Of a stretch of 59,880 nt of DNA, positions 5,475 to 58,758 are shown piece after piece. Every line of letters starts with the position of its first letter. Within the stretch, counting starts at the first letter, position 1. The DNA lies in sequence record LR025197.1. One strand, given 5' to 3'. The stretch is from Escherichia phage vB_Eco_SLUR75. Both the position numbers and the translations under genes were made by a program. The notes beneath the pieces were generated by a model. That model saw only the letters and a program-made list of their open reading frames with translations. It was not told where the DNA came from and made no database searches.

Positions 5475-5819
5475 ATGTTCAATTCACCCAACGAACATTG
5501 GGCAGTTCTAGCGGGGTTTGCGTTTATCTCCCTCATTGGGGGAGCTCTCGGTTATGTCATGCGTACAATAGACGCTGGTAAGAAAGTACGGGCAAGCATT
5601 GCATTTCTTGAAGGCTTATCCGCCGCTTTCTTTGGCGTTATAATGTATGCGATCTACAGGGAGTTTAACATCAGCCTTTGGTTCGCTTTTGGCCTTGCTG
5701 GCCTATTTGCTTGGGCAGGTTCACGTGCTACGCTAAAAGCCCTAACGTCGCTTATAGCTTCACGGACAGGGATCAAACTCGATTCAGGGGACTGCAAACA
5801 TGAAAACGATTCTAAATAA
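5475..5819 (+). CDS. Putative holin (114 aa)
   Basis: Three predicted TM segments with a charged C-terminal tail; position in lysis cassette. Confidence 0.5.
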   Translation: MFNSPNEHWAVLAGFAFISLIGGALGYVMRTIDAGKKVRASIAFLEGLSAAFFGVIMYAIYREFNISLWFAFGLAGLFAWAGSRATLKALTSLIASRTGIKLDSGDCKHENDSK

Positions 5820-24742: not shown

Positions 24743-24770
24743 TTAACCCCTCAAACGAGGGGTTAATTTT
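24743..24770. terminator. Bidirectional terminator hairpin
   Basis: AACCCCTC-aaac-GAGGGGTT with A-run upstream and T-run downstream; between convergent J-like and lipoprotein genes. Confidence 0.6.
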
Positions 24771-25003
24771 CAATAATCAATCACACAGTTTGAAGGTGAG
24801 CCAATTCGTCGGTATTCGTGATCAATTTCATGACACCATTGCCCAGTCATTGGAAGCTTTTCGGTATCATAAATTAAAGAACCGTTACCATCGCGATCCA
24901 AAGGTTTTGGAACGACGCCGGAATTAGGTTTACCAGTATTTAAACCATTACCACATGCGGTAAGGGACAAACATAATGCCAGCATAATTAGAGCGTGTTT
25001 CAT
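24770..25003 (-). CDS. Small lipoprotein, candidate superinfection-exclusion protein (77 aa)
   Basis: Signal peptide with lipobox LSLTAC|G; sole opposite-strand gene in the tail module, between the J-like and tail fiber genes. Confidence 0.55.
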   Translation of the reverse strand: MKHALIMLALCLSLTACGNGLNTGKPNSGVVPKPLDRDGNGSLIYDTEKLPMTGQWCHEIDHEYRRIGSPSNCVIDY

Positions 25004-25085
25004 CGGGACTCCTTTGTGTTGTTGTCAAGGTTCAATTTTAATATACTTGTTGTGTTGAGTAAGTCAAATAAATGTGGGAGATATT

Positions 25086-28000
25086 ATGGCAACTCGTTTA
25101 CGTGGTACTTTAGTTGATGGTTTGAATAAGCCTATTATCAACGCTACAGTTGCGCTTTTAGCTAAAGGAAACAGTCTTACCGTATTATCCGGCAGCGAAG
25201 CTATCTTTAAAACAAGTGCAACCGGAACTTATGATATTACAGTCCAGACAGGTTATTACAAGGTTATTATCGGTCCACAGGGCGTAGAGCCATATAAAGC
25301 TGGTGAAATTGCTATTTACGCGGATAGTAAAGAAGGTACGCTGAATAACTATTTAACTACATGGGCACCGGAAGAGCTAACTCCGGAAGTTATTACTCAG
25401 GTAAAAGATTTGGTTGCACAAGCTGAGACAGCTAAGAACGCTTCATCCACGTCTGCTACTAAATCCGAACAGGAGCGAGTTAAAGCAGAAGCTGCTGCTA
25501 AAAAAGCGGAAGACACTGCTAATGGTATGAAAGCCTCTATTGGCTTAACTACTGCCCCAAGACATGTTGCAAATATTACAGTAGAACCTACAGCATTCTT
25601 AGGCTTCATACGAATTGTACGATCTACCACAGTCGGTTATCCAGATATAGCTTCATCAGAAAACGTATTGGCTGGTTTTATTTCTGCTATGGACGGAACC
25701 CCTGGATATGTCGGGGTATTTGTTGGTGACTTCACCGGAACTGTATACACTTATCGTTGGACTAAGAATGTTGGCGCGGTATGGTGGAAACAAGTTAACT
25801 ACTCTACTGTCAACAGATATACCCAGCTTAACGCAGAAACTAATTTTACAAACCAATTGGGTAACGCCAAACTTCTTATTGACAATAATAAAGTTTGGGG
25901 TGCTTATGATAACGACAATAAACGCTATATACCCCTTGCAATAGCTCAGGGTGGTACTGGCGCGGTAAATGTTAATGATGCTTTGGAAAACTTTGGGTTA
26001 GGTCGTAACTCCGCGCCACGTTTCAAACATCTTGATCTGGACAATGCATCAAATTCTACACAAGCAGCTTCTGGAATTCTAAACGGCTACCTCCGTGATT
26101 CTAGCGGTGTGCAAAGAACTAAGCATAGATTATATTCAGAAATTAAAAGCGATGGGAAAGCGTGGTTAACCATGCAGATCTATTCTGATGAATCTACGCA
26201 GAAGACTTTAGGTTATAACATTGACGGCGATTTCCAAATTGTACGTAATTTTATCGGGCAGTCCTTACAATTATCGGATTTAACCACAACTCATAAAAAT
26301 CTACAGATTGATAGATTTAAGCAGTTGTCCGCTGGAACAAGGGTCTACGGAGGTCCAGCCGATGAGCGATATTTTGAAGTTCATACCGGGGCCTGGGGTG
26401 TTTATAACGTAACAGAAAAGAAATGGATACCTTTAGCCATATCACAAGGTGGGACGGGAGCTGTTACAGTTGCGGACGCCAAGAAGAACCTTTTAATCCC
26501 GGACGGAGGTCTTGATTCGGCTACCCGTGTGGATAAACCCGCTGGAGCGGAAGATGCTAAGTATTATCCAATCATTATTAGCCAACCTAGCGGGTATGAT
26601 GGCACGTACCTAACAGAAATTGAAATGAGCACTCCCAGCAGAAGTGCTGCACAAAGTCCTAACTCTAACATCTTAAGAGCTTGGATTCGAAGCGCTGGAT
26701 GGAGCGATAAAGGTACTGTTGGCTTTGGGAATTTCTTTGCTTATGATAGTAAAGAGGTTGCAATTTTATGTATACGTGGCACATCTAGAGGTCAATATCC
26801 TCATAATGCTGTTTACGTAAAGGGCGATGCTTTCCCTGTTTATATTAGGAAGACTGTTGGATCCACAATTACAGTTCCCACTTCTGACTGGTCTGCAGAT
26901 CCAAATGCGTCAGATAAGTGTGTTTATAAATGGGGCATCACAGGCGATTTAGATGGTATTGGTGATGAATATGGGTGTCGAAATATACTAAACTTTGTCA
27001 AAGGTTTGAACGGATTTTATTGTAACGACTATTTCCGTGATGCTGGAGGGAATGCTTATCTTAAGGATGGGATGAATTATGGAGGTGATATAAAATTACA
27101 ACTCCGTAAATTGGAAATAAACGGTAATCTTACCGCAGGGAACGCTATAACTGCTTTCGGTCCTACTGTAGCAAATAATACATTTGTATCACAGTTAACA
27201 AATGCGGATTCTAGTCAAGCATTGCATCAAAGCGAGTTTAGAGCTGGGGAAAGCGGTGGGCAAATTGTTGTTCGGGATATGTCAGCAGTAGCCAATCATA
27301 AATTCTTTAACTTTAATCTAGACGGAAGCTTCAGTCCGCCAAACGGATTATTGTCTTCTACTGGTGTGGATTGGAACAGTCAAATTAATACCGTCAATAA
27401 GTTCTATGGAATTGCCGGACAAGTTAACTCAGCAGAAAACAATGTTGTTTACGGGGGCATTCACGTAGGTTTTAGCGGTAATTATGCATTTCAACTAGCT
27501 GGTAGAAATAACAAAGCAAGTTTTCGTACATTTGAAGCAGGCACACCTGGACCTTGGATGCGTCTTATTACTGATCAGTATGCAGACTTCAAAGTACCAA
27601 TTTTTGCTAACAAGAATGGTGAAGCTATAACCATTAAATCGACAGTAGATGACAACTCTGAATCTGGATATATCGCTGGGAGGAATAACGCTAATACCCG
27701 TTTGTGGTATATAGGGAAGTCCGGACCTCAAGAAACTGTGGTTATCCGTAATGATATGAATGGAAACCAAATACTCTTAAGGGACGGTGCAGGCGATATA
27801 AGCTTGGATACAAAAGACGGGAACAAAGTTGTATTTGCAAAAGCTTCCAACTTTAGACTTGTTAATAGTAATGGAAAATATACAAGGTTAGTAACATCAG
27901 GAAGTTCAACTCATGCAATTAGCATGGACAACTGGGGTACAAGCGCAAGACCTACTGTGTTCGAATGTAAGTATGAAGACTATAGCACTTCTGCTAACGT

Positions 28001-28472
28001 TGGTTGGATATACTACGGTCAGGTAAATACAGATGGAAGCCGAACATTTCAGGTAAACGGAACTGTCGGTTGTACTAGTGTTGTTCAAAGCTCAGACCGA
28101 GATCTTAAAGACAACATTAAGACTATTGCAGATGCAACTAAAGCATTGCGTAAAATGAATGGCTACACATATACTCTCAAGGAAGATGGTTTACCCTATG
28201 CTGGTGTAATCGCTCAAGAAGTTATGGAAGCTCTACCTGAAGCGGTTAGCAGTTTCACAAAGCATGAGTATATGGAAGGCCAAGATGGAGAAGGTAATGA
28301 TACAAGATATGATCTTGGAAAACGTTATCTTAATGTAGACTACTCCGCGGTAACTGGTCTTCTGGTTCAGGTTTGTCGTGAAGCAGATGACCGCATTACA
28401 AAACTTGAAACTGAAGTTGAGGAACTCAAAAAATTAGTTGCAACACTTGTTAATAAAGAACCACTACCATAA
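25086..28472 (+). CDS. Tail fiber with C-terminal intramolecular chaperone, peptidase S74-like (1128 aa)
   Basis: C-terminal SDRDLKDNIKTI...GYTYTLKEDG...YAGVIAQEV matches the self-cleaving chaperone motif; internal duplicated IPLAI(A/S)QGGTGAV motif. ATG at M5 of track ORF (track start 25074 is GTG). Confidence 0.8.
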   Translation: MATRLRGTLVDGLNKPIINATVALLAKGNSLTVLSGSEAIFKTSATGTYDITVQTGYYKVIIGPQGVEPYKAGEIAIYADSKEGTLNNYLTTWAPEELTPEVITQVKDLVAQAETAKNASSTSATKSEQERVKAEAAAKKAEDTANGMKASIGLTTAPRHVANITVEPTAFLGFIRIVRSTTVGYPDIASSENVLAGFISAMDGTPGYVGVFVGDFTGTVYTYRWTKNVGAVWWKQVNYSTVNRYTQLNAETNFTNQLGNAKLLIDNNKVWGAYDNDNKRYIPLAIAQGGTGAVNVNDALENFGLGRNSAPRFKHLDLDNASNSTQAASGILNGYLRDSSGVQRTKHRLYSEIKSDGKAWLTMQIYSDESTQKTLGYNIDGDFQIVRNFIGQSLQLSDLTTTHKNLQIDRFKQLSAGTRVYGGPADERYFEVHTGAWGVYNVTEKKWIPLAISQGGTGAVTVADAKKNLLIPDGGLDSATRVDKPAGAEDAKYYPIIISQPSGYDGTYLTEIEMSTPSRSAAQSPNSNILRAWIRSAGWSDKGTVGFGNFFAYDSKEVAILCIRGTSRGQYPHNAVYVKGDAFPVYIRKTVGSTITVPTSDWSADPNASDKCVYKWGITGDLDGIGDEYGCRNILNFVKGLNGFYCNDYFRDAGGNAYLKDGMNYGGDIKLQLRKLEINGNLTAGNAITAFGPTVANNTFVSQLTNADSSQALHQSEFRAGESGGQIVVRDMSAVANHKFFNFNLDGSFSPPNGLLSSTGVDWNSQINTVNKFYGIAGQVNSAENNVVYGGIHVGFSGNYAFQLAGRNNKASFRTFEAGTPGPWMRLITDQYADFKVPIFANKNGEAITIKSTVDDNSESGYIAGRNNANTRLWYIGKSGPQETVVIRNDMNGNQILLRDGAGDISLDTKDGNKVVFAKASNFRLVNSNGKYTRLVTSGSSTHAISMDNWGTSARPTVFECKYEDYSTSANVGWIYYGQVNTDGSRTFQVNGTVGCTSVVQSSDRDLKDNIKTIADATKALRKMNGYTYTLKEDGLPYAGVIAQEVMEALPEAVSSFTKHEYMEGQDGEGNDTRYDLGKRYLNVDYSAVTGLLVQVCREADDRITKLETEVEELKKLVATLVNKEPLP

Positions 28473-28488
28473 CCACATCTAACTTCCA

Positions 28489-28514
28489 CAGCGCGTCTTC
28501 GGGCGCGCTTTTTA
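28489..28514 (+). terminator. Rho-independent terminator after tail fiber gene
   Basis: AGCGCG-tcttcggg-CGCGCT hairpin followed by TTTTT. Confidence 0.6.
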
Positions 28515-28643
28515 TTGGCTGTCAATCCCAATTTACAAAATCTTTACATTTGGATCATTGTAAAAAGCATGTTAAGGGCTATGCTTTACTTCGTAACCAG
28601 TTGGTTACATCCGCTTAACAAATCCATATATGGAGATTTTCCT

Positions 28644-29351
28644 ATGTCTGACATGACTCTTTTACCTACTAATCTCGGTGGCGACGGTTTCGGTGGTGAA
28701 GCTGGTGCGGCTGGTATCGGTGGCGCGATCGGTGGCTTAATTGGTTCCTGGATCGGTAATGGTTGGGGCGGCAATGGTGGTTGGGGTGGTCGCGGTAACT
28801 TCGCTGGTCCGGTGGAAGTGCAAGCTTCTGTTGACACCAACGCAATTCTGCAAGCTATCAACAACGGTACTCTTCAGACCATTCAGGGGCAGAACGGTAC
28901 TAACCTGACTGTTGAGCGCTCCGCTGCTTCTACCTATAACGGTATTACTCAGCAGAACACTCAAAACCTGCTGGCTTCCGTTCAGGGCTTTGCTGGTCTG
29001 AACACGCAGATCCAGGGCGGCACCAGCCAAGTGCTCGCGGCTCTGTGTAACAACGAAGCAGCTAACATTACCCGCTCCTTCCAGGCTCAGTTAGAAGCTC
29101 AGAAGTGTTGCTGCGAAACCAACCTGAACATCGAGCGTCAAGCAGAAGCTACTCGTGCTCTCCTGCGCGATCAGCACGCACAAGCGCAAGCTGTTCTGAT
29201 CTGTGACCTGAAGTCCCAGTTGCAGGAAGCTCGCTTTGCAAACTCTCAGTTGGCGCAGACGGCTGGCCTTACCTGTAAAATCAATCAGGTTGAGCAGTTA
29301 GTTAACTTTAAACTGCCAACTCCTCCGACTCCTCCGACTGGCTGCTGCTAA
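28644..29351 (+). CDS. Glycine-rich protein with C-terminal Cys motifs (235 aa)
   Basis: ATG at M44 of track ORF with RBS TGGAG; N-terminal GGDGFGGEAGAAGIGGAIGGLIGSWIGNGWGGNGGWGG, Gln/Asn/Thr-rich middle, C-terminal CCCE...PTPPTPPTGCC. Confidence 0.5.
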   Translation: MSDMTLLPTNLGGDGFGGEAGAAGIGGAIGGLIGSWIGNGWGGNGGWGGRGNFAGPVEVQASVDTNAILQAINNGTLQTIQGQNGTNLTVERSAASTYNGITQQNTQNLLASVQGFAGLNTQIQGGTSQVLAALCNNEAANITRSFQAQLEAQKCCCETNLNIERQAEATRALLRDQHAQAQAVLICDLKSQLQEARFANSQLAQTAGLTCKINQVEQLVNFKLPTPPTPPTGCC

Positions 29352-29372: not shown

Positions 29373-29408
29373 AAAGCGCCTTTCGCTCCTCCGCTTGGGG
29401 CGCTTTTA
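29373..29408 (+). terminator. Putative terminator hairpin
   Basis: AAGCGCC ... GGCGCTT stem with a long loop, followed by TTTT. Confidence 0.4.
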
Positions 29409-29422
29409 ACAGAGGTAATATC

Positions 29423-29791
29423 ATGAGCCACATTAAAATCGCAACGATGGGAATACCACGGGTTAAATTGCCTAAGGTTGCTTTACCTCGCATTAGCGTA
29501 GGTGAGCACCACCATGAACACGAGAAAGAGGAATATAAACATGCTCACTCTTATGCTCGAGATCATGAACATATGGCAGCTATGTCAAATGTTCTTGACC
29601 GGATGGAAGAACCTCCGCATACGTGGGCGGCGTACCACGACAAGCCCGGCGGTATGATGTCCATTGTTGAAATGGAATACCGCGAATTAATGGAGTGTAA
29701 GAAAGAAGGCGACCGCGCAGGGATCATGAAAGAGTTGACTGATCTTGCCGCAGCTTGTACTTGCGCTCTTCAAAAAATGAAAGATATGTAA
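29423..29791 (+). CDS. His-rich protein, possible MazG-like NTP pyrophosphohydrolase (122 aa)
   Basis: GEHHHEHEKEEYKHAHSYARDHEH metal-binding-like stretch; EMEYRELME...MKELTDL resembles the ExxE...ExxD pattern of MazG/HisE proteins. Confidence 0.3.
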   Translation: MSHIKIATMGIPRVKLPKVALPRISVGEHHHEHEKEEYKHAHSYARDHEHMAAMSNVLDRMEEPPHTWAAYHDKPGGMMSIVEMEYRELMECKKEGDRAGIMKELTDLAAACTCALQKMKDM

Positions 29792-29806: not shown

Positions 29807-30337
29807 ATGCAAAACGTAAACGCAGGAATGGGCGTAACCCAGTTCAACGGGATGAAACCGAAAAACTCCATCAACATGGGCGGTGTTGATTGGACGTTAC
29901 GTCGGGACGCTACCGATTCAACTACCATGTTCCCACACCAGAAGGTGAGCTGGCTTAATGCTGGCTGTGAACCTATGGGTGATGGAAGGGTTCATTACTG
30001 TTGGATTATGGGAGTGATACCGCCTACGCCGGGCACTATCGAACGACCCGTGAATGTGATGTATGTCGGCTTCCACCAGTTCAAGATCACAATTGCTCCA
30101 AACTCCATTAGTCAGTCAGATCTTGATCGTATGCATGTTTACGTCAGCGATGGTACAGACTTCGCAGGGGATTTTATTAGTAAGTTTCTTGGTATGCAAC
30201 CAGAGCAGCCTGTAGAAGCACGCGAGCATATTAGCCCGTGGCCACCCATGATTGATCAGGAAGTGCTGCAACCAAAGACCGCTCAAACGGTCCCTCAGAA
30301 ACCGGAGCAGAAGGTGAAACCAAATGACGAAGAATGA
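29807..30337 (+). CDS. Hypothetical protein (176 aa)
   Basis: RBS-like GGAAG upstream; no recognisable motif. Confidence 0.5.
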   Translation: MQNVNAGMGVTQFNGMKPKNSINMGGVDWTLRRDATDSTTMFPHQKVSWLNAGCEPMGDGRVHYCWIMGVIPPTPGTIERPVNVMYVGFHQFKITIAPNSISQSDLDRMHVYVSDGTDFAGDFISKFLGMQPEQPVEAREHISPWPPMIDQEVLQPKTAQTVPQKPEQKVKPNDEE

Positions 30338-30608
30338 AGGTATTGATAAAGTCGTTGAAGGGCTTTCTATTCGTGCTCATGTTATAGCAGACGAAGGTCA
30401 TGATCAACTCACAATTATGAAATCTGCATTCAGCGATTTTAAGTCTCTTGGAAACTTAAGCGGGTTAATGACTGTGGTGTCGACCGGAAAATTAACCCAG
30501 CAGCAAATCAGTCTGGCTCAGCGTATTGCTGTTAAAGTTATTGCGGTACTTGGGATGATTGAAGCTGAAAAGCCCAGTTCCAAGCAGGATAACGAAAGCG
30601 ACCTTTAA
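30324..30608 (+). CDS. Hypothetical protein (94 aa)
   Basis: Overlaps upstream gene end. Confidence 0.45.
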   Translation: MTKNEGIDKVVEGLSIRAHVIADEGHDQLTIMKSAFSDFKSLGNLSGLMTVVSTGKLTQQQISLAQRIAVKVIAVLGMIEAEKPSSKQDNESDL

Positions 30609-30619
30609 GGAGGTCTACT

Positions 30620-30823
30620 ATGTGTGGTAATACTAACCGTTGCTGTCTAGGCAGTCCTGCAACACAAGCAGGTATACTTCAGGGGCAATTAGCTCAAGCA
30701 GCGTGTAATTGCAAAACTTTTCAACCAGTAGCGCCAACTCCTGTGTTTGTGAATGCTTTTGCACCGCCTGTTTTCAATACTTTTGGCGTATACCCATACG
30801 GTGCTTTCTTTCGTATATTCTAA
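30620..30823 (+). CDS. Small Cys-rich protein (67 aa)
   Basis: RBS AAGGAGG; CCLGS...CNCK cysteines; last gene of the forward arm. Confidence 0.45.
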   Translation: MCGNTNRCCLGSPATQAGILQGQLAQAACNCKTFQPVAPTPVFVNAFAPPVFNTFGVYPYGAFFRIF

Positions 30824-41106: not shown

Positions 41107-41919
41107 TTACAAGCCGTTCAGGGCTTCCGGTACTGGCATAGGTACGCGACCAGTTACACCATTAAACTTCTTCCAACGTGCATACTGAGTTTTAACAGTA
41201 TCTTCGTTCAGACCGTGACGACCTGCCAGATTCAGAACATAAGAGATTGGAGCAGGCTGACCCAGCGTAGCGCTAATCTGATCCATCAGGGCCCAGGCAC
41301 GACCGCAGGAAGTTTCAGGTTGCGGACGACGAACACCATTCTGTTCAGGCATACGGTTCGCTTCTTTCGCTTTTTCACGTTCAGCTTTTTCGCGGGCTTT
41401 TTCAGCAGCCTTTTCAGCCTGTTTAGCAGCGCGGATCTTGTCTTTGAAGCCTTTGATAGACGAATCCAGTTCGTCAACCATGCTCTGAGCAGCAGTTACT
41501 GCACCGGACAGATCTTCACCTTTGGATTTTTTAACAACTGCTTTCAGATCTTTCAGAGCATTCTTTAAATGCTTCAGCTGTTCGGAACCCTTAGATTCTG
41601 CTTCCGTAATCTGTTCAACAGTGCTTTCATCGGTAATACCGGATAAAGCAAACTTCACGGTTTCAACTGCCTGGGAAAGAGCGGTAAATTTATTTTCCGC
41701 TTCAATACGAATTTCAGCTTGTTTCTTTTCAGCGGCAGCTTTTTTCTCTGCTTCTTTTTTCTCTTTTGCTACGCGTGCAGCTTCAGCAGCAGCGGCTTTT
41801 TTAGCCTCTGCGTCGTTAGCAGTAGCTTCTTTCTTTGCAGGCTTAGCAGATTTTGCAGCGGCAGCAGCGGCTGCGGCAGCAGCGGCTTTCTTATCTTCAA
41901 TATTACTCATTTTCTTCAC
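41107..41919 (-). CDS. Lys/Ala-rich histone H1-like protein with conserved C-terminal domain (270 aa)
   Basis: N-terminal KKAAAAAAAAAAAKSAKPAKKEA and KEKKEAEKKAAAEKK repeats; C-terminal domain shares a motif with ORF 57541..58122. Confidence 0.6.
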   Translation of the reverse strand: MKKMSNIEDKKAAAAAAAAAAAKSAKPAKKEATANDAEAKKAAAAEAARVAKEKKEAEKKAAAEKKQAEIRIEAENKFTALSQAVETVKFALSGITDESTVEQITEAESKGSEQLKHLKNALKDLKAVVKKSKGEDLSGAVTAAQSMVDELDSSIKGFKDKIRAAKQAEKAAEKAREKAEREKAKEANRMPEQNGVRRPQPETSCGRAWALMDQISATLGQPAPISYVLNLAGRHGLNEDTVKTQYARWKKFNGVTGRVPMPVPEALNGL

Positions 41920-57163: not shown

Positions 57164-57490
57164 TTAGAGCTGTACAGGTATGAAGTGGGCTAATGTGTCG
57201 TCGGACATGATACCCGACAATTTTTCGCTTACCCATTCGGACCAAATGCTATCCGGTTCCTGGCGGTGTACAAACCAGATTTCGGATGTGCCTTCTTTGC
57301 GCATCGGCTGCACTTCTACAAGGAACTTGTCCTGCATGAGGCGGGTGAAGCATACGCTAGTCATTGGAACTGGCTTTTCGTGTTTATTGTAATAAGGAGT
57401 CAGTAATTTATTTCCGAAGTTGGCAACTTCATAAACTGTTCCTTTGCGAAGACCTCTGATGTCTGTGTAAGAGCGGATAAATGTTTTCAT
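57164..57490 (-). CDS. Hypothetical protein (108 aa)
   Basis: ORF with AGGAG-like RBS upstream. Confidence 0.5.
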   Translation of the reverse strand: MKTFIRSYTDIRGLRKGTVYEVANFGNKLLTPYYNKHEKPVPMTSVCFTRLMQDKFLVEVQPMRKEGTSEIWFVHRQEPDSIWSEWVSEKLSGIMSDDTLAHFIPVQL

Positions 57491-57540
57491 GTTTACTCCT
57501 AGGGCTCCCGCAGAAGCCCGTTGGTTGATGTGGTTATAGA

Positions 57541-58122
57541 TTATGCGTCCAGTCCGTTATATTTGCGCCAGGCGTAGAACTGAATGGCAACCGTTGTCCC
57601 GTTGTAAGAAGGCATTGCAGCTTTCATTTCTTTCAGCTCCGGCGTGCGGCCCAGTTCGGCTAAAAGTTTATCGCCCATTGCCCACACTTCGGCGGTTTTT
57701 CCTTTCAGGGGCTTGCGAGCGCCATTTTTGAAATCACAGCGAGCAGCTTTTGCATCCTGTTTTGGCGCGGCAGCTTTTGGCTCTTCAATTTTGATTTCAG
57801 AAACCTGCGTGGCAGCTTTTGCGTGTTTCATATCTTTCTCTTCCTCCTGCTCCAGAGCTTCGAGGCAGCTTTTGACGATTTCCGGATTTACCATCGGGCG
57901 CAGTACCGAGACGCTGGCAGCTGGCGCGGCGGTCGGTGCCGGGACTTTCTGCTCCGGCTGTTGCGCTTTTTTATGGTCGCGCAGCACCTGAAGCACTTCT
58001 TTCTCGACGATGTAAAAACCAATCTCGTCCTGATGGATAAGCTGTTCGTGTGCGTCGCGTGCAACCTGGCCCCAGCGGGTCTTAAGGGCGCGGCGTGCAT
58101 TCGTTTTCATGGTGTAGCGCAT
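57541..58122 (-). CDS. Hypothetical protein sharing C-terminal domain with the KA-rich protein (193 aa)
   Basis: ATG at M27 of track ORF (track start is GTG); C-terminal AEVWAMGDKLLAELG...YAWRKYNG parallels RAWALMDQISATLG...YARWKKFNG of ORF 41107..41919. Confidence 0.5.
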   Translation of the reverse strand: MRYTMKTNARRALKTRWGQVARDAHEQLIHQDEIGFYIVEKEVLQVLRDHKKAQQPEQKVPAPTAAPAASVSVLRPMVNPEIVKSCLEALEQEEEKDMKHAKAATQVSEIKIEEPKAAAPKQDAKAARCDFKNGARKPLKGKTAEVWAMGDKLLAELGRTPELKEMKAAMPSYNGTTVAIQFYAWRKYNGLDA

Positions 58123-58228
58123 TTTGTCCTGTTCGCGGTGGGTTACTTTAGACACGGTATAGCTCCTTTCGTTAATATTAGTTTGCTTATTACTGCCCAC
58201 CGTAATGATGAGCAGTGTATAAGAAAAC

Positions 58229-58477
58229 TTACTGCACGATTGCTACGAAATCGGCGGTTGCGATATCCATGCTTGCGAAAGCAACGATGCTATAGTCGGT
58301 GTCGTTGTCCGCGTTAAACGCTTTGAGGAACTGCTGTACTGCTGCTTTATGGTTAAGAGTTACGTCGACAGCGTAGTCCCAGCTATAGACTTTGCGCTTG
58401 CCAAAACCTTTAACAGCAATGCGTGCGCTTTTAGTGTTGGTTGGTGCCAAAAATTTGGTGACGATAGAAGTAGCCAT
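58229..58477 (-). CDS. Hypothetical protein (82 aa)
   Basis: ORF with GAGGA RBS upstream. Confidence 0.5.
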   Translation of the reverse strand: MATSIVTKFLAPTNTKSARIAVKGFGKRKVYSWDYAVDVTLNHKAAVQQFLKAFNADNDTDYSIVAFASMDIATADFVAIVQ

Positions 58478-58545
58478 GATGTAATCCTCGTTTTGTTTAA
58501 GTTGACTTATTATTGCCCAGTCAGATCAACTAGGCAAGATATAAA

Positions 58546-58758
58546 TCACTTAATTTGTACTAAATCGTATTCCTTGTAGATGTCGCTAATGTACATATCG
58601 AACTGGCCCATTAAGAAGATTTCGGCCTCCTCCCAGCTTGGGGCAGATACATAACCAGCTATTTTACCGGACGCGAGTTCCACTAATTTGAATTCCATGA
58701 TGTAACCCTTAATGTGGTTAAGCAGTATTGCTTTGTTGAAGTAATAATAGCCTTGCAT
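58546..58758 (-). CDS. Hypothetical protein (70 aa)
   Basis: First gene of the reverse arm. Confidence 0.45.
   Translation of the reverse strand: MQGYYYFNKAILLNHIKGYIMEFKLVELASGKIAGYVSAPSWEEAEIFLMGQFDMYISDIYKEYDLVQIK

Follow-up and report, generated by a model that had tools for sequence, protein, structure and literature searches.

Glycine-zipper protein A of Escherichia phage vB_Eco_SLUR75 and its mobile four-gene cassette

Gene A and its protein family

We analysed a 59,880-nucleotide stretch of DNA from Escherichia phage vB_Eco_SLUR75 (sequence record LR025197.1), a genome of the genus Seuratvirus (Queuovirinae), which as a whole is called the window below and whose numbering is used throughout. 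The gene considered here, which we call A, lies on the plus strand at 28644–29351 and encodes a 235-amino-acid (aa) glycine-zipper, Q/N/T-rich, CCC-containing protein; it is followed by genes B, C and D, with which it forms a syntenic cassette that moves between phage lineages. Phages slur01, Greed and CAjan share about 98% identity with the window over this region.

The ATG of gene A stands 8 nucleotides behind a Shine-Dalgarno sequence GGAG (28632–28635), and its translation, which is identical to the one quoted when the gene was first noticed from the letters of the window alone (below, the original prediction), includes GGDGFGGEAGAAGIGGAIGGLIGSWIGNGWGGNGGWGG, KCCCE at residues 154–158 and the C-terminal PTPPTPPTGCC. 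A longer, TTG-initiated open reading frame (ORF) that begins at 28515 is not supported, as the MSDM start is kept in all lineages and the upstream DNA, which is non-coding and AT-rich, is not alignable as protein. Ratios of nonsynonymous to synonymous substitution rates (dN/dS) of 0.05–0.23 against six homologues identify A as a genuine gene that evolves under purifying selection.

The A protein contains 13.6% glycine, 10.6% glutamine, 8.9% asparagine and 8.5% threonine. Glycine accounts for 21 of the 41 residues at positions 12–52 (28677–28799; binomial P = 7e-14 against a background of 7.2% glycine in the window ORFs), and charged residues make up 11% of the protein versus 23% in that background; the excess of cysteine (eight residues) is modest (P = 0.018). 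The glycine-rich N-terminus, the Q/N/T-rich character and the two cysteine-containing motifs of the C-terminal part were thus correctly described in the original prediction. Its term "cysteine-tailed" fits the window protein, which does end in GCC, but not the family at large; the conserved cysteines there are the CCC motif (Cys155–157, encoded by 29106–29114 and present in 195 of the 199 family members examined) and C187, and although a Pro/Thr-rich tail (29316–29348) is found family-wide, its terminal GCC is restricted to certain clades. At the other end of the protein is an acidic motif, MSDMTLLPT (28644–28670), in which M1, M4, L6 and P8 are invariant among 30 homologues and which is still visible as MxxMxLxP in distant members. 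The glycine-rich region that follows carries the zipper G26/G30/G34/G38 and ends in GSW(I/F)GNG(W/F)GG; we propose below that it inserts into membranes. The motifs conserved in the family are MSDMxLxP, the glycine zipper with its GSW(F/I)GNG(F/W)GG end, TR, LCD(A)K, SQxAQT and the Thr/Pro/Ala-rich tail, and there are in addition one to four QGFxG(L/V)N repeat units of about 22 residues each.

A full-length match to A was found in phrog_9288 (E = 1e-129, residues 1–235 against profile positions 1–233 of 234), a family of unknown function that was matched by all 28 of 28 diverse A homologues, 12 of which also matched phrog_16490. These two families and phrog_8119 are the closest to A and have no functional annotation, so they provide a name without an explanation. 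A homologue search found 169 close relatives and a profile search 813; among representatives at 50% identity, searched exhaustively with a profile, there were 122 clusters. Members are encoded by Seuratvirus and Nonagvirus phages, the 9NA-like phages Sasha and Solent, the T1-like Drexlerviridae aaroes, pSf-1 and KarlJaspers, Yersinia phages PY100 and P400, Edwardsiella phage eiAU and, as a broken copy, the T5-like Epseptimavirus vaffelhjerte. With T4-like phages and Firmicutes prophages included, the family comprises more than 800 proteins from Queuovirinae, Drexlerviridae, 9NA-like, PY100-like and T4-like phages and these prophages; the statement that such a composition is unusual for a phage protein was therefore too strong, since phrog_9288 and phrog_16490 together form a large phage family present in hundreds of genomes.

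Other searches were negative. The best Pfam match of A was DUF6160 (E = 0.094, 13.4 bits versus a cutoff of 27), scans of A against NCBIfam and PADLOC gave no match, and a profile of the close A family found nothing below E = 0.9 among PDB sequences. Pfam, NCBIfam and PADLOC scans of the products of A through E (gene E is described below) likewise gave nothing significant, and the literature search found no publication that characterises A or the cassette and no virion proteome or transcriptome with relevant data. A and its three partners thus have no annotation, Pfam family or structural relative, and the remote-homology searches assigned A to none of the ordinary structural protein families.

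The most distant clade of the family resides in Clostridiales, Oscillospiraceae, Ruminococcus and other Firmicutes assemblies, as prophages. Its core domain is clearly homologous to that of A (hhalign probability 99.7%, E = 1e-26), and at the position of the zipper it has a canonical transmembrane (TM) helix with a Kyte-Doolittle (KD) hydropathy of 1.6–2.1, followed by GGFGG repeats (for example FFVFFLFFLLAW and IIWLILILLILGG); its members end in (GC)n tails. The neighbourhood of these homologues (loci L061–L066, from Clostridiales, Oscillospiraceae and Ruminococcus) is a different conserved one made up of phage families of unknown function, in which the next gene encodes a 141-aa, Cys-terminal protein with a CC motif (phrog_20016) and a NAGPA/tail-collar protein is encoded upstream.

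The A-B-C-D cassette and its losses

Genes B (29423–29791, 122 aa), C (29807–30337, 176 aa) and D (30324–30608, 94 aa) have the same orientation as A and are conserved with it; of 37 loci in which a clear A relative is encoded, 34 have the order A-B-C-D on one strand, and the exceptions are one locus without C, one with a fragmented C and one that is rearranged. B, C and D are pairwise homologous across Seuratvirus, the T1-like phage KarlJaspers, PY100 (ORF29–32) and phage contigs. Besides Seuratvirus, Nonagvirus, 9NA-like, T1-like and PY100 phages, carriers of the cassette include a 69-kb phage contig, a 32-kb contig and a 215-kb T4-like contig, on the last of which it lies between gp59/gp32 and UvsW.

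None of the three partner proteins has a signal peptide and all three are soluble. B contains a His-rich tract (GEHHHEHEKEEYKHAH in the window, HHHHHYHH or HQHIHHHHHH in other homologues) and, behind it, a helical C-terminal domain with a weak likeness to the MazG/PRA-PH all-alpha NTP pyrophosphatases: Pfam matches to PRA-PH have E = 0.0066–0.016, and MazG is matched with E = 3.7e-4 by two of 12 homologues. The window B protein scores 16.0 bits versus a gathering score of 21.3, and the other matches appear to lie below the gathering score as well. The acidic catalytic pair of those enzymes is not conserved, for although the window B has an ExxE...ExxD-like motif, several homologues have other residues (AYTH, GLTH) in place of ExxD, and catalysis is therefore not conserved among B proteins; the His-rich tract together with this replacement suggests metal binding instead. 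C is the best-conserved member of the cassette and has a beta-rich core without a confident structural relative; a PDB sequence search with C alone gave no match, and its resemblance in fold to the Eag/DUF1795 chaperones is faint and below significance. D has no predicted fold and no family match.

Downstream of D is gene E (30620–30823, plus strand), a 67-aa Cys/Pro/aromatic-rich ORF (MCGNTNRCC...YPYGAFFRIF, phrog_25697) that was found only in the window and in Seuratvirus-type cassettes (loci L015 and L017–L019). The idea that it is a duplicated fragment of A was rejected, as the two have no significant similarity (E = 1.1).

The cassette has been damaged or lost several times in nature. In KurtStettler (MZ501091.1, 4127–5659) a protein with an S74 chaperone domain (...LLVQVCREA) is fused in frame to A from residue 19 on (GAAGIGG...), so that A residues 1–18 are missing; the deletion took place at a GAAGC microhomology and removed the terminator, the leader and the conserved A N-terminus, and the resulting ORF is annotated "putative lateral tail fiber chaperone". 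VogelGryff has lost the C-terminus of A along with B through E, and WildeMaa and SHIN8 retain only fragments. In the 223-aa protein P0121 the A sequence ...CCCETNLNIER is joined to C (PVNVMYVGFH) through an IER microhomology with the removal of B; this deletion fusion is present on 11 contigs, the longest of which has 61 kb, and the cassette has evidently been lost in some circulating Queuovirinae. In the T5-like Salmonella phage vaffelhjerte (6752–7342) A is broken into two ORF fragments, its CCC has become YCC, B–D are absent, and it directly follows an S74-type L-shaped fibre gene; it looks like a remnant that was carried in with the fibre module and then decayed.

These natural deletions, fusions and pseudogenes show that the cassette is dispensable for plaque formation, and A tends to decay where B–D are missing. 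Both observations are consistent with an accessory role that needs its partners, and we conclude that the cassette is accessory and provides neither an essential structural protein nor a fibre chaperone.

Expression signals at the locus

The frequency of E. coli-optimal codons (Fop) of A, 0.774, is the highest of the 87 ORFs in the window (major capsid protein 0.722, median 0.534), and the values for B–D are ordinary (0.50–0.57). A has a higher Fop than B, C and D in eight of eight lineages tested, and this holds when glycine codons are left out. Several other ORFs of the window, at 41107–41919 and 57164–58758 (both on the minus strand), also have very high Fop (0.66–0.76, comparable to the capsid gene); their products, whose functions are unassigned, are presumably early or middle proteins made in large amounts.

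Upstream of A the tail-fibre gene ends in a terminator (28490–28509, plus strand) with an 8-bp GC-rich stem followed by TTTTTATT. Between A and B is a hairpin with a T-run (29374–29409, AAAGCGCC...GGGCGCTTTT), and B starts 14 nucleotides past it. Gene A had been taken for a terminator-bounded unit of its own, and both of these boundaries do exist; it is not isolated, however, given the co-oriented and conserved B–D. Hairpins are found at the equivalent place in KarlJaspers, PY100 and locus L011, which with the window makes four lineages; those of the window, KarlJaspers and PY100 share AGCGCC...GGCGCTTTT, the one of L011 differs, and the KarlJaspers hairpin folds with z = -3.25. We propose that this hairpin is an attenuator by which A is made in much larger amounts than B, C and D. 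Judging from codon usage and these signals, A is likely to be very highly expressed, probably the most heavily of all genes of this phage, with read-through into B–D attenuated.

The leader of A contains two motifs that are each unique within the window. The first, TTACAAAATCTTTACAT (28533–28549), is a possible promoter or regulatory element, and the second, the palindrome GTAAC-N6-GTTAC (28593–28608), forms a 6-bp hairpin, which may stabilise the 5' end or serve as an operator. Both are shared with the A leader of KarlJaspers (upstream of position 5815), the first in the common form TTACAAAwTCTTTAyAT, although the rest of the intergenic DNA has diverged; the pair could be a regulatory element borne by the cassette. 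A promoter scan with a threshold of nine of 12 matches found no strong sigma-70 promoter upstream of A; by inspection only, there is a weak candidate, TTGTAA-16 nt-TATGCT (28558–28585), with eight of 12 matches.

Possible roles of the A protein

We favour, at a probability of roughly 0.35, the reading that A is an abundant, membrane-anchored and oligomerising modifier of the cell envelope that acts, for example, in superinfection exclusion or membrane stabilisation. A would anchor in or insert into the cytoplasmic membrane by means of its N-terminal glycine-zipper segment, and would associate with itself through the zipper and through the downstream helical, low-charge domain that bears CCC and C187. 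It would lead a mobile four-gene operon in which the hairpin attenuator holds the soluble B, C and D far lower, and these three may act on or with A, for example by chaperoning, metal loading or modification. The result would be an infected-cell envelope that is altered to the conditional benefit of the phage (exclusion, or membrane stabilisation or insulation), a role separate from virion structure, fibre folding or canonical lysis. We infer this envelope role from context and analogy.

The membrane part of this reading draws on the zipper G26-G30-G34-G38, a perfect GxxxG series within AGAAGIGGAIGGLIGSWIG that gives a (G/A/S)xxxGxxxG pattern in a segment of bilayer-spanning length; residues 20–38 are the sole hydrophobic maximum of A. 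A KD value of at least 1.6 is reached by 16 of the 199 family members, and these carry canonical TM helices at the zipper position. The helix of the Firmicutes clade supports the N-terminal segment as a membrane element throughout the family, and it is plausible that the N-terminus of the enterobacterial A proteins is membrane-inserting. It also follows from the Firmicutes hosts that the family must be able to function in cells with neither an outer membrane nor a periplasm. Acidic residues predominate in the N-terminal flank of the segment (D+E 2.3 and K+R 0.44 on average over the 199 members), and the C-terminal flank is nearly neutral, which by the positive-inside rule would give a slight preference for an N-out/C-in topology. 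The original prediction had likened the N-terminus to membrane-active or translocation domains, and the first of these likenesses is supported by the GxxxG zipper, by the TM helix at the same position in the homologous clade and, weakly and inconsistently, by a match to the influenza HA2 fusion peptide that is described below. The second is not: in place of a colicin-type protein with cytotoxic and receptor domains, for which Pfam, NCBIfam and PDB searches gave no match, the 235 residues of A are fully accounted for by the glycine region, the conserved helical core and the short tail.

Several findings weigh against membrane anchoring or an envelope role. The zipper of the window protein has a KD of 1.27 over 19 residues and the family median is 1.16, versus a classical threshold of 1.6, so stable insertion of a monomer is uncertain for such weakly hydrophobic enterobacterial zippers. 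A has no signal peptide and no positively charged N-terminal flank, and its very low charge and Q/N/T-rich sequence resemble those of extracytoplasmic or fibrous proteins, which conflicts with a C-in topology. No consistent 3.5-residue (heptad) hydrophobic periodicity runs through residues 56–230, and a canonical coiled coil was therefore rejected. An AlphaFold2 model of A from a 30-sequence alignment has residues 1–66 disordered and residues 87–221 in one implausibly long helix; its mean confidence is poor (pLDDT 55.6), and it was judged unusable for a fold search. B–D are not detectable beside A in Firmicutes, and the literature search gave no experimental data on the localisation, timing or phenotype of A. 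Finally, known exclusion proteins are usually the products of single genes and are not the most codon-optimised protein of their phage.

A position at the end of a tail module with a regulatory leader of its own is typical of moron and exclusion genes (HK97 gp15, T5 llp, T1 cor). The exclusion and moron proteins HK97 gp15, T4 Imm, lactococcal Sie2009 and P22 SieA resemble A in being dispensable and in having their own unit at the edge of a tail module, and they carry an N-terminal membrane segment, as A is proposed to do. On the other hand they have no sequence similarity to A, each is encoded by a gene that stands alone and is not tied, as A is, to three soluble partners, and A is the most codon-optimised gene and is spread over virulent phages of several families. 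A cassette that is mobile, costly and dispensable in the laboratory has the typical signature of phage-host or phage-phage conflict (exclusion, counter-defence or membrane protection). Understanding A would annotate hundreds of genomes, including those of phages in the BASEL collection and of phage-therapy candidates, and could bring to light a novel phage strategy for manipulating membranes; the question is directly testable, as the BASEL collection contains natural knock-outs (VogelGryff and KurtStettler) that can be compared with SeppeHuegi.

The alternative that survives best, although we consider it unlikely, is that A is a virion- or fibre-associated protein (a fibrous decoration, fibre accessory, chaperone or sugar-binding protein) whose cysteines cross-link after release. 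A does lie directly behind lateral tail-fibre genes in the window, in 11 S74-fibre loci, in KarlJaspers, in the T5-like phage and in locus L009, and in Firmicutes it is near a NAGPA/tail-collar gene; its low-charge, Q/N/T/G-rich composition is fibre-like, its codon adaptation is at the level of the capsid gene, and some GenBank records label A "lateral tail fibre chaperone" or "sugar-binding protein". But in PY100 and on the T4-like contig (gp32–UvsW) the cassette is away from any fibre gene, it is shared by phages of very different virion architectures, the Firmicutes homologues carry a strongly hydrophobic TM helix, and A has been repeatedly deleted or truncated in viable phages. The window fibre gene (25074–28472, plus strand, outside the cassette; phrog_6578 and other tail-fibre PHROGs) has its own C-terminal S74-type intramolecular chaperone; the same type of C-terminus is encoded upstream of A in the 11 related viral loci, and Peptidase_S74 was called on the L009 fibre. 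As to the labels, the "chaperone" of KurtStettler belongs to the second S74-domain protein that is fused to A, and in PJ16 the chaperone label is directly on an A homologue. We therefore rejected a tail-fibre chaperone as such, since an obligate linkage to fibres fails in PY100 and the T4-like contig, the fibre has its own S74 domain and the losses are viable.

It is improbable that A is instead a stockpiled membrane attacker, similar to a microcin, colicin or fusion peptide, that B–D keep harmless and that is freed at lysis and inserts from outside. Glycine-zipper segments are known from the VacA N-terminus, class II microcins and the TM domains of Tse6-type effectors of the type VI secretion system with their Eag partners, and A shares with these a (G/A/S)xxxGxxxG pattern, a weakly hydrophobic, Gly/Ala-rich sequence and flanking aromatic residues; the glycine zipper, the low charge and the C-terminal cysteines also match the composition of class II microcins. 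The precursors of the latter are shorter than about 120 aa and have a double-glycine leader and a dedicated ABC exporter, whereas A has 235 aa and no double-glycine leader (MSDMTLLPTNLGG by inspection misfits the leader spacing), and no exporter is annotated in close relatives. Massive expression of a first gene with a glycine-rich N-terminus, followed by an attenuating terminator, mirrors the layout of colicin operons, but no Tol/Ton box was identified, and a receptor-binding hairpin, a cytotoxic domain and genes for immunity and lysis are all absent; a Pfam scan of A and B–E found no colicin family and no cytotoxic or receptor-binding domain. A weak match to the influenza HA2 fusion peptide also speaks for membrane attack: a profile of the diverse A family aligns positions 18–86 to HA2 residues 3–72 (E = 7.5e-4), and in both proteins a Gly-rich, amphipathic N-terminal stretch that contains acidic residues and Trp precedes a helix rich in N, Q and I. 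The close-family profile did not reproduce this match, the Firmicutes-clade profile gave a non-significant E = 0.6–1, and A differs from HA2 in having no C-terminal TM anchor, receptor-binding subunit or clear heptad repeat; the resemblance is almost certainly compositional or convergent and not homology. All of the structural and sequence similarities that would favour membrane attack are below significance, soluble bacteriocins have nothing like the strongly hydrophobic TM helix of the Firmicutes clade, and killing bystander hosts is of no obvious benefit to a virulent phage. A comparison of A with the tape-measure protein of the same phage, whose membrane segment A might mimic, found no similarity.

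A related and equally doubtful idea is that A-B-C-D is an unrecognised mobile system in which C, as an Eag-like holder, would keep a fusion-peptide-like A soluble until its deployment, with help from B and D, after which A would coat or perforate membranes. The target could then be the membrane of the infected cell itself (against superinfection or membrane-targeting abortive-infection effectors) or that of neighbours after lysis, and this would be a new class of envelope-manipulating machinery common to phages of Gram-negative and Gram-positive hosts.

We give similarly little credence to A as a cytoplasmic scaffold or metal-binding protein, which would form filaments or condensates through its Gly/aromatic region and Q/N-rich helices and bind metal by CCC together with B. 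This accords with the lack of signal peptides in A and in the soluble B, C and D, with the His-rich tracts of B and the metal-ligand-like CCC and (GC)n tails, with GWGG/GFGG spacers that resemble those of sticker-spacer low-complexity domains, and with the replication genes that adjoin the cassette in PY100, T1-like and T4-like contexts. It accords less well with the canonical TM helix at the homologous position in the Firmicutes clade and with a charge content far below that of typical cytoplasmic helical proteins, and no metal-binding or filament family was detected.

A lysis-related A, either a class III-like holin/antiholin or a spanin-like membrane-fusion factor, is very unlikely: its putative N-terminal membrane segment with a large C-terminal domain and a size like that of T4 holin T, its cysteines and Pro-rich tail reminiscent of Rz/Rz1, and its place between tail and distal genes in Firmicutes prophages (the usual one of lysis genes) are outweighed by capsid-level expression that would be lethal for a holin, by the tolerated losses of A, by monoderm as well as diderm hosts that exclude an outer-membrane-specific role, and by a complete lysis cassette elsewhere in close relatives (in SeppeHuegi the annotated genes for endolysin, holin, i-spanin and o-spanin lie about 37 kb from A), which excludes a canonical lysis role. 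An i-spanin (Rz-like) identity was specifically rejected, as the cassette has no lipoprotein partner, the family is present in Clostridiales, Oscillospiraceae and Ruminococcus, and in close relatives the spanins are encoded elsewhere.

Flanked by the genes for the J-like tip protein and the lateral fibre, the minus strand of the window at 24770–25003 encodes a 77-aa lipoprotein (MKHALIMLALCLSLTAC..., phrog_12984 "lipoprotein") that is probably a receptor-masking exclusion lipoprotein of the Cor/Llp type.

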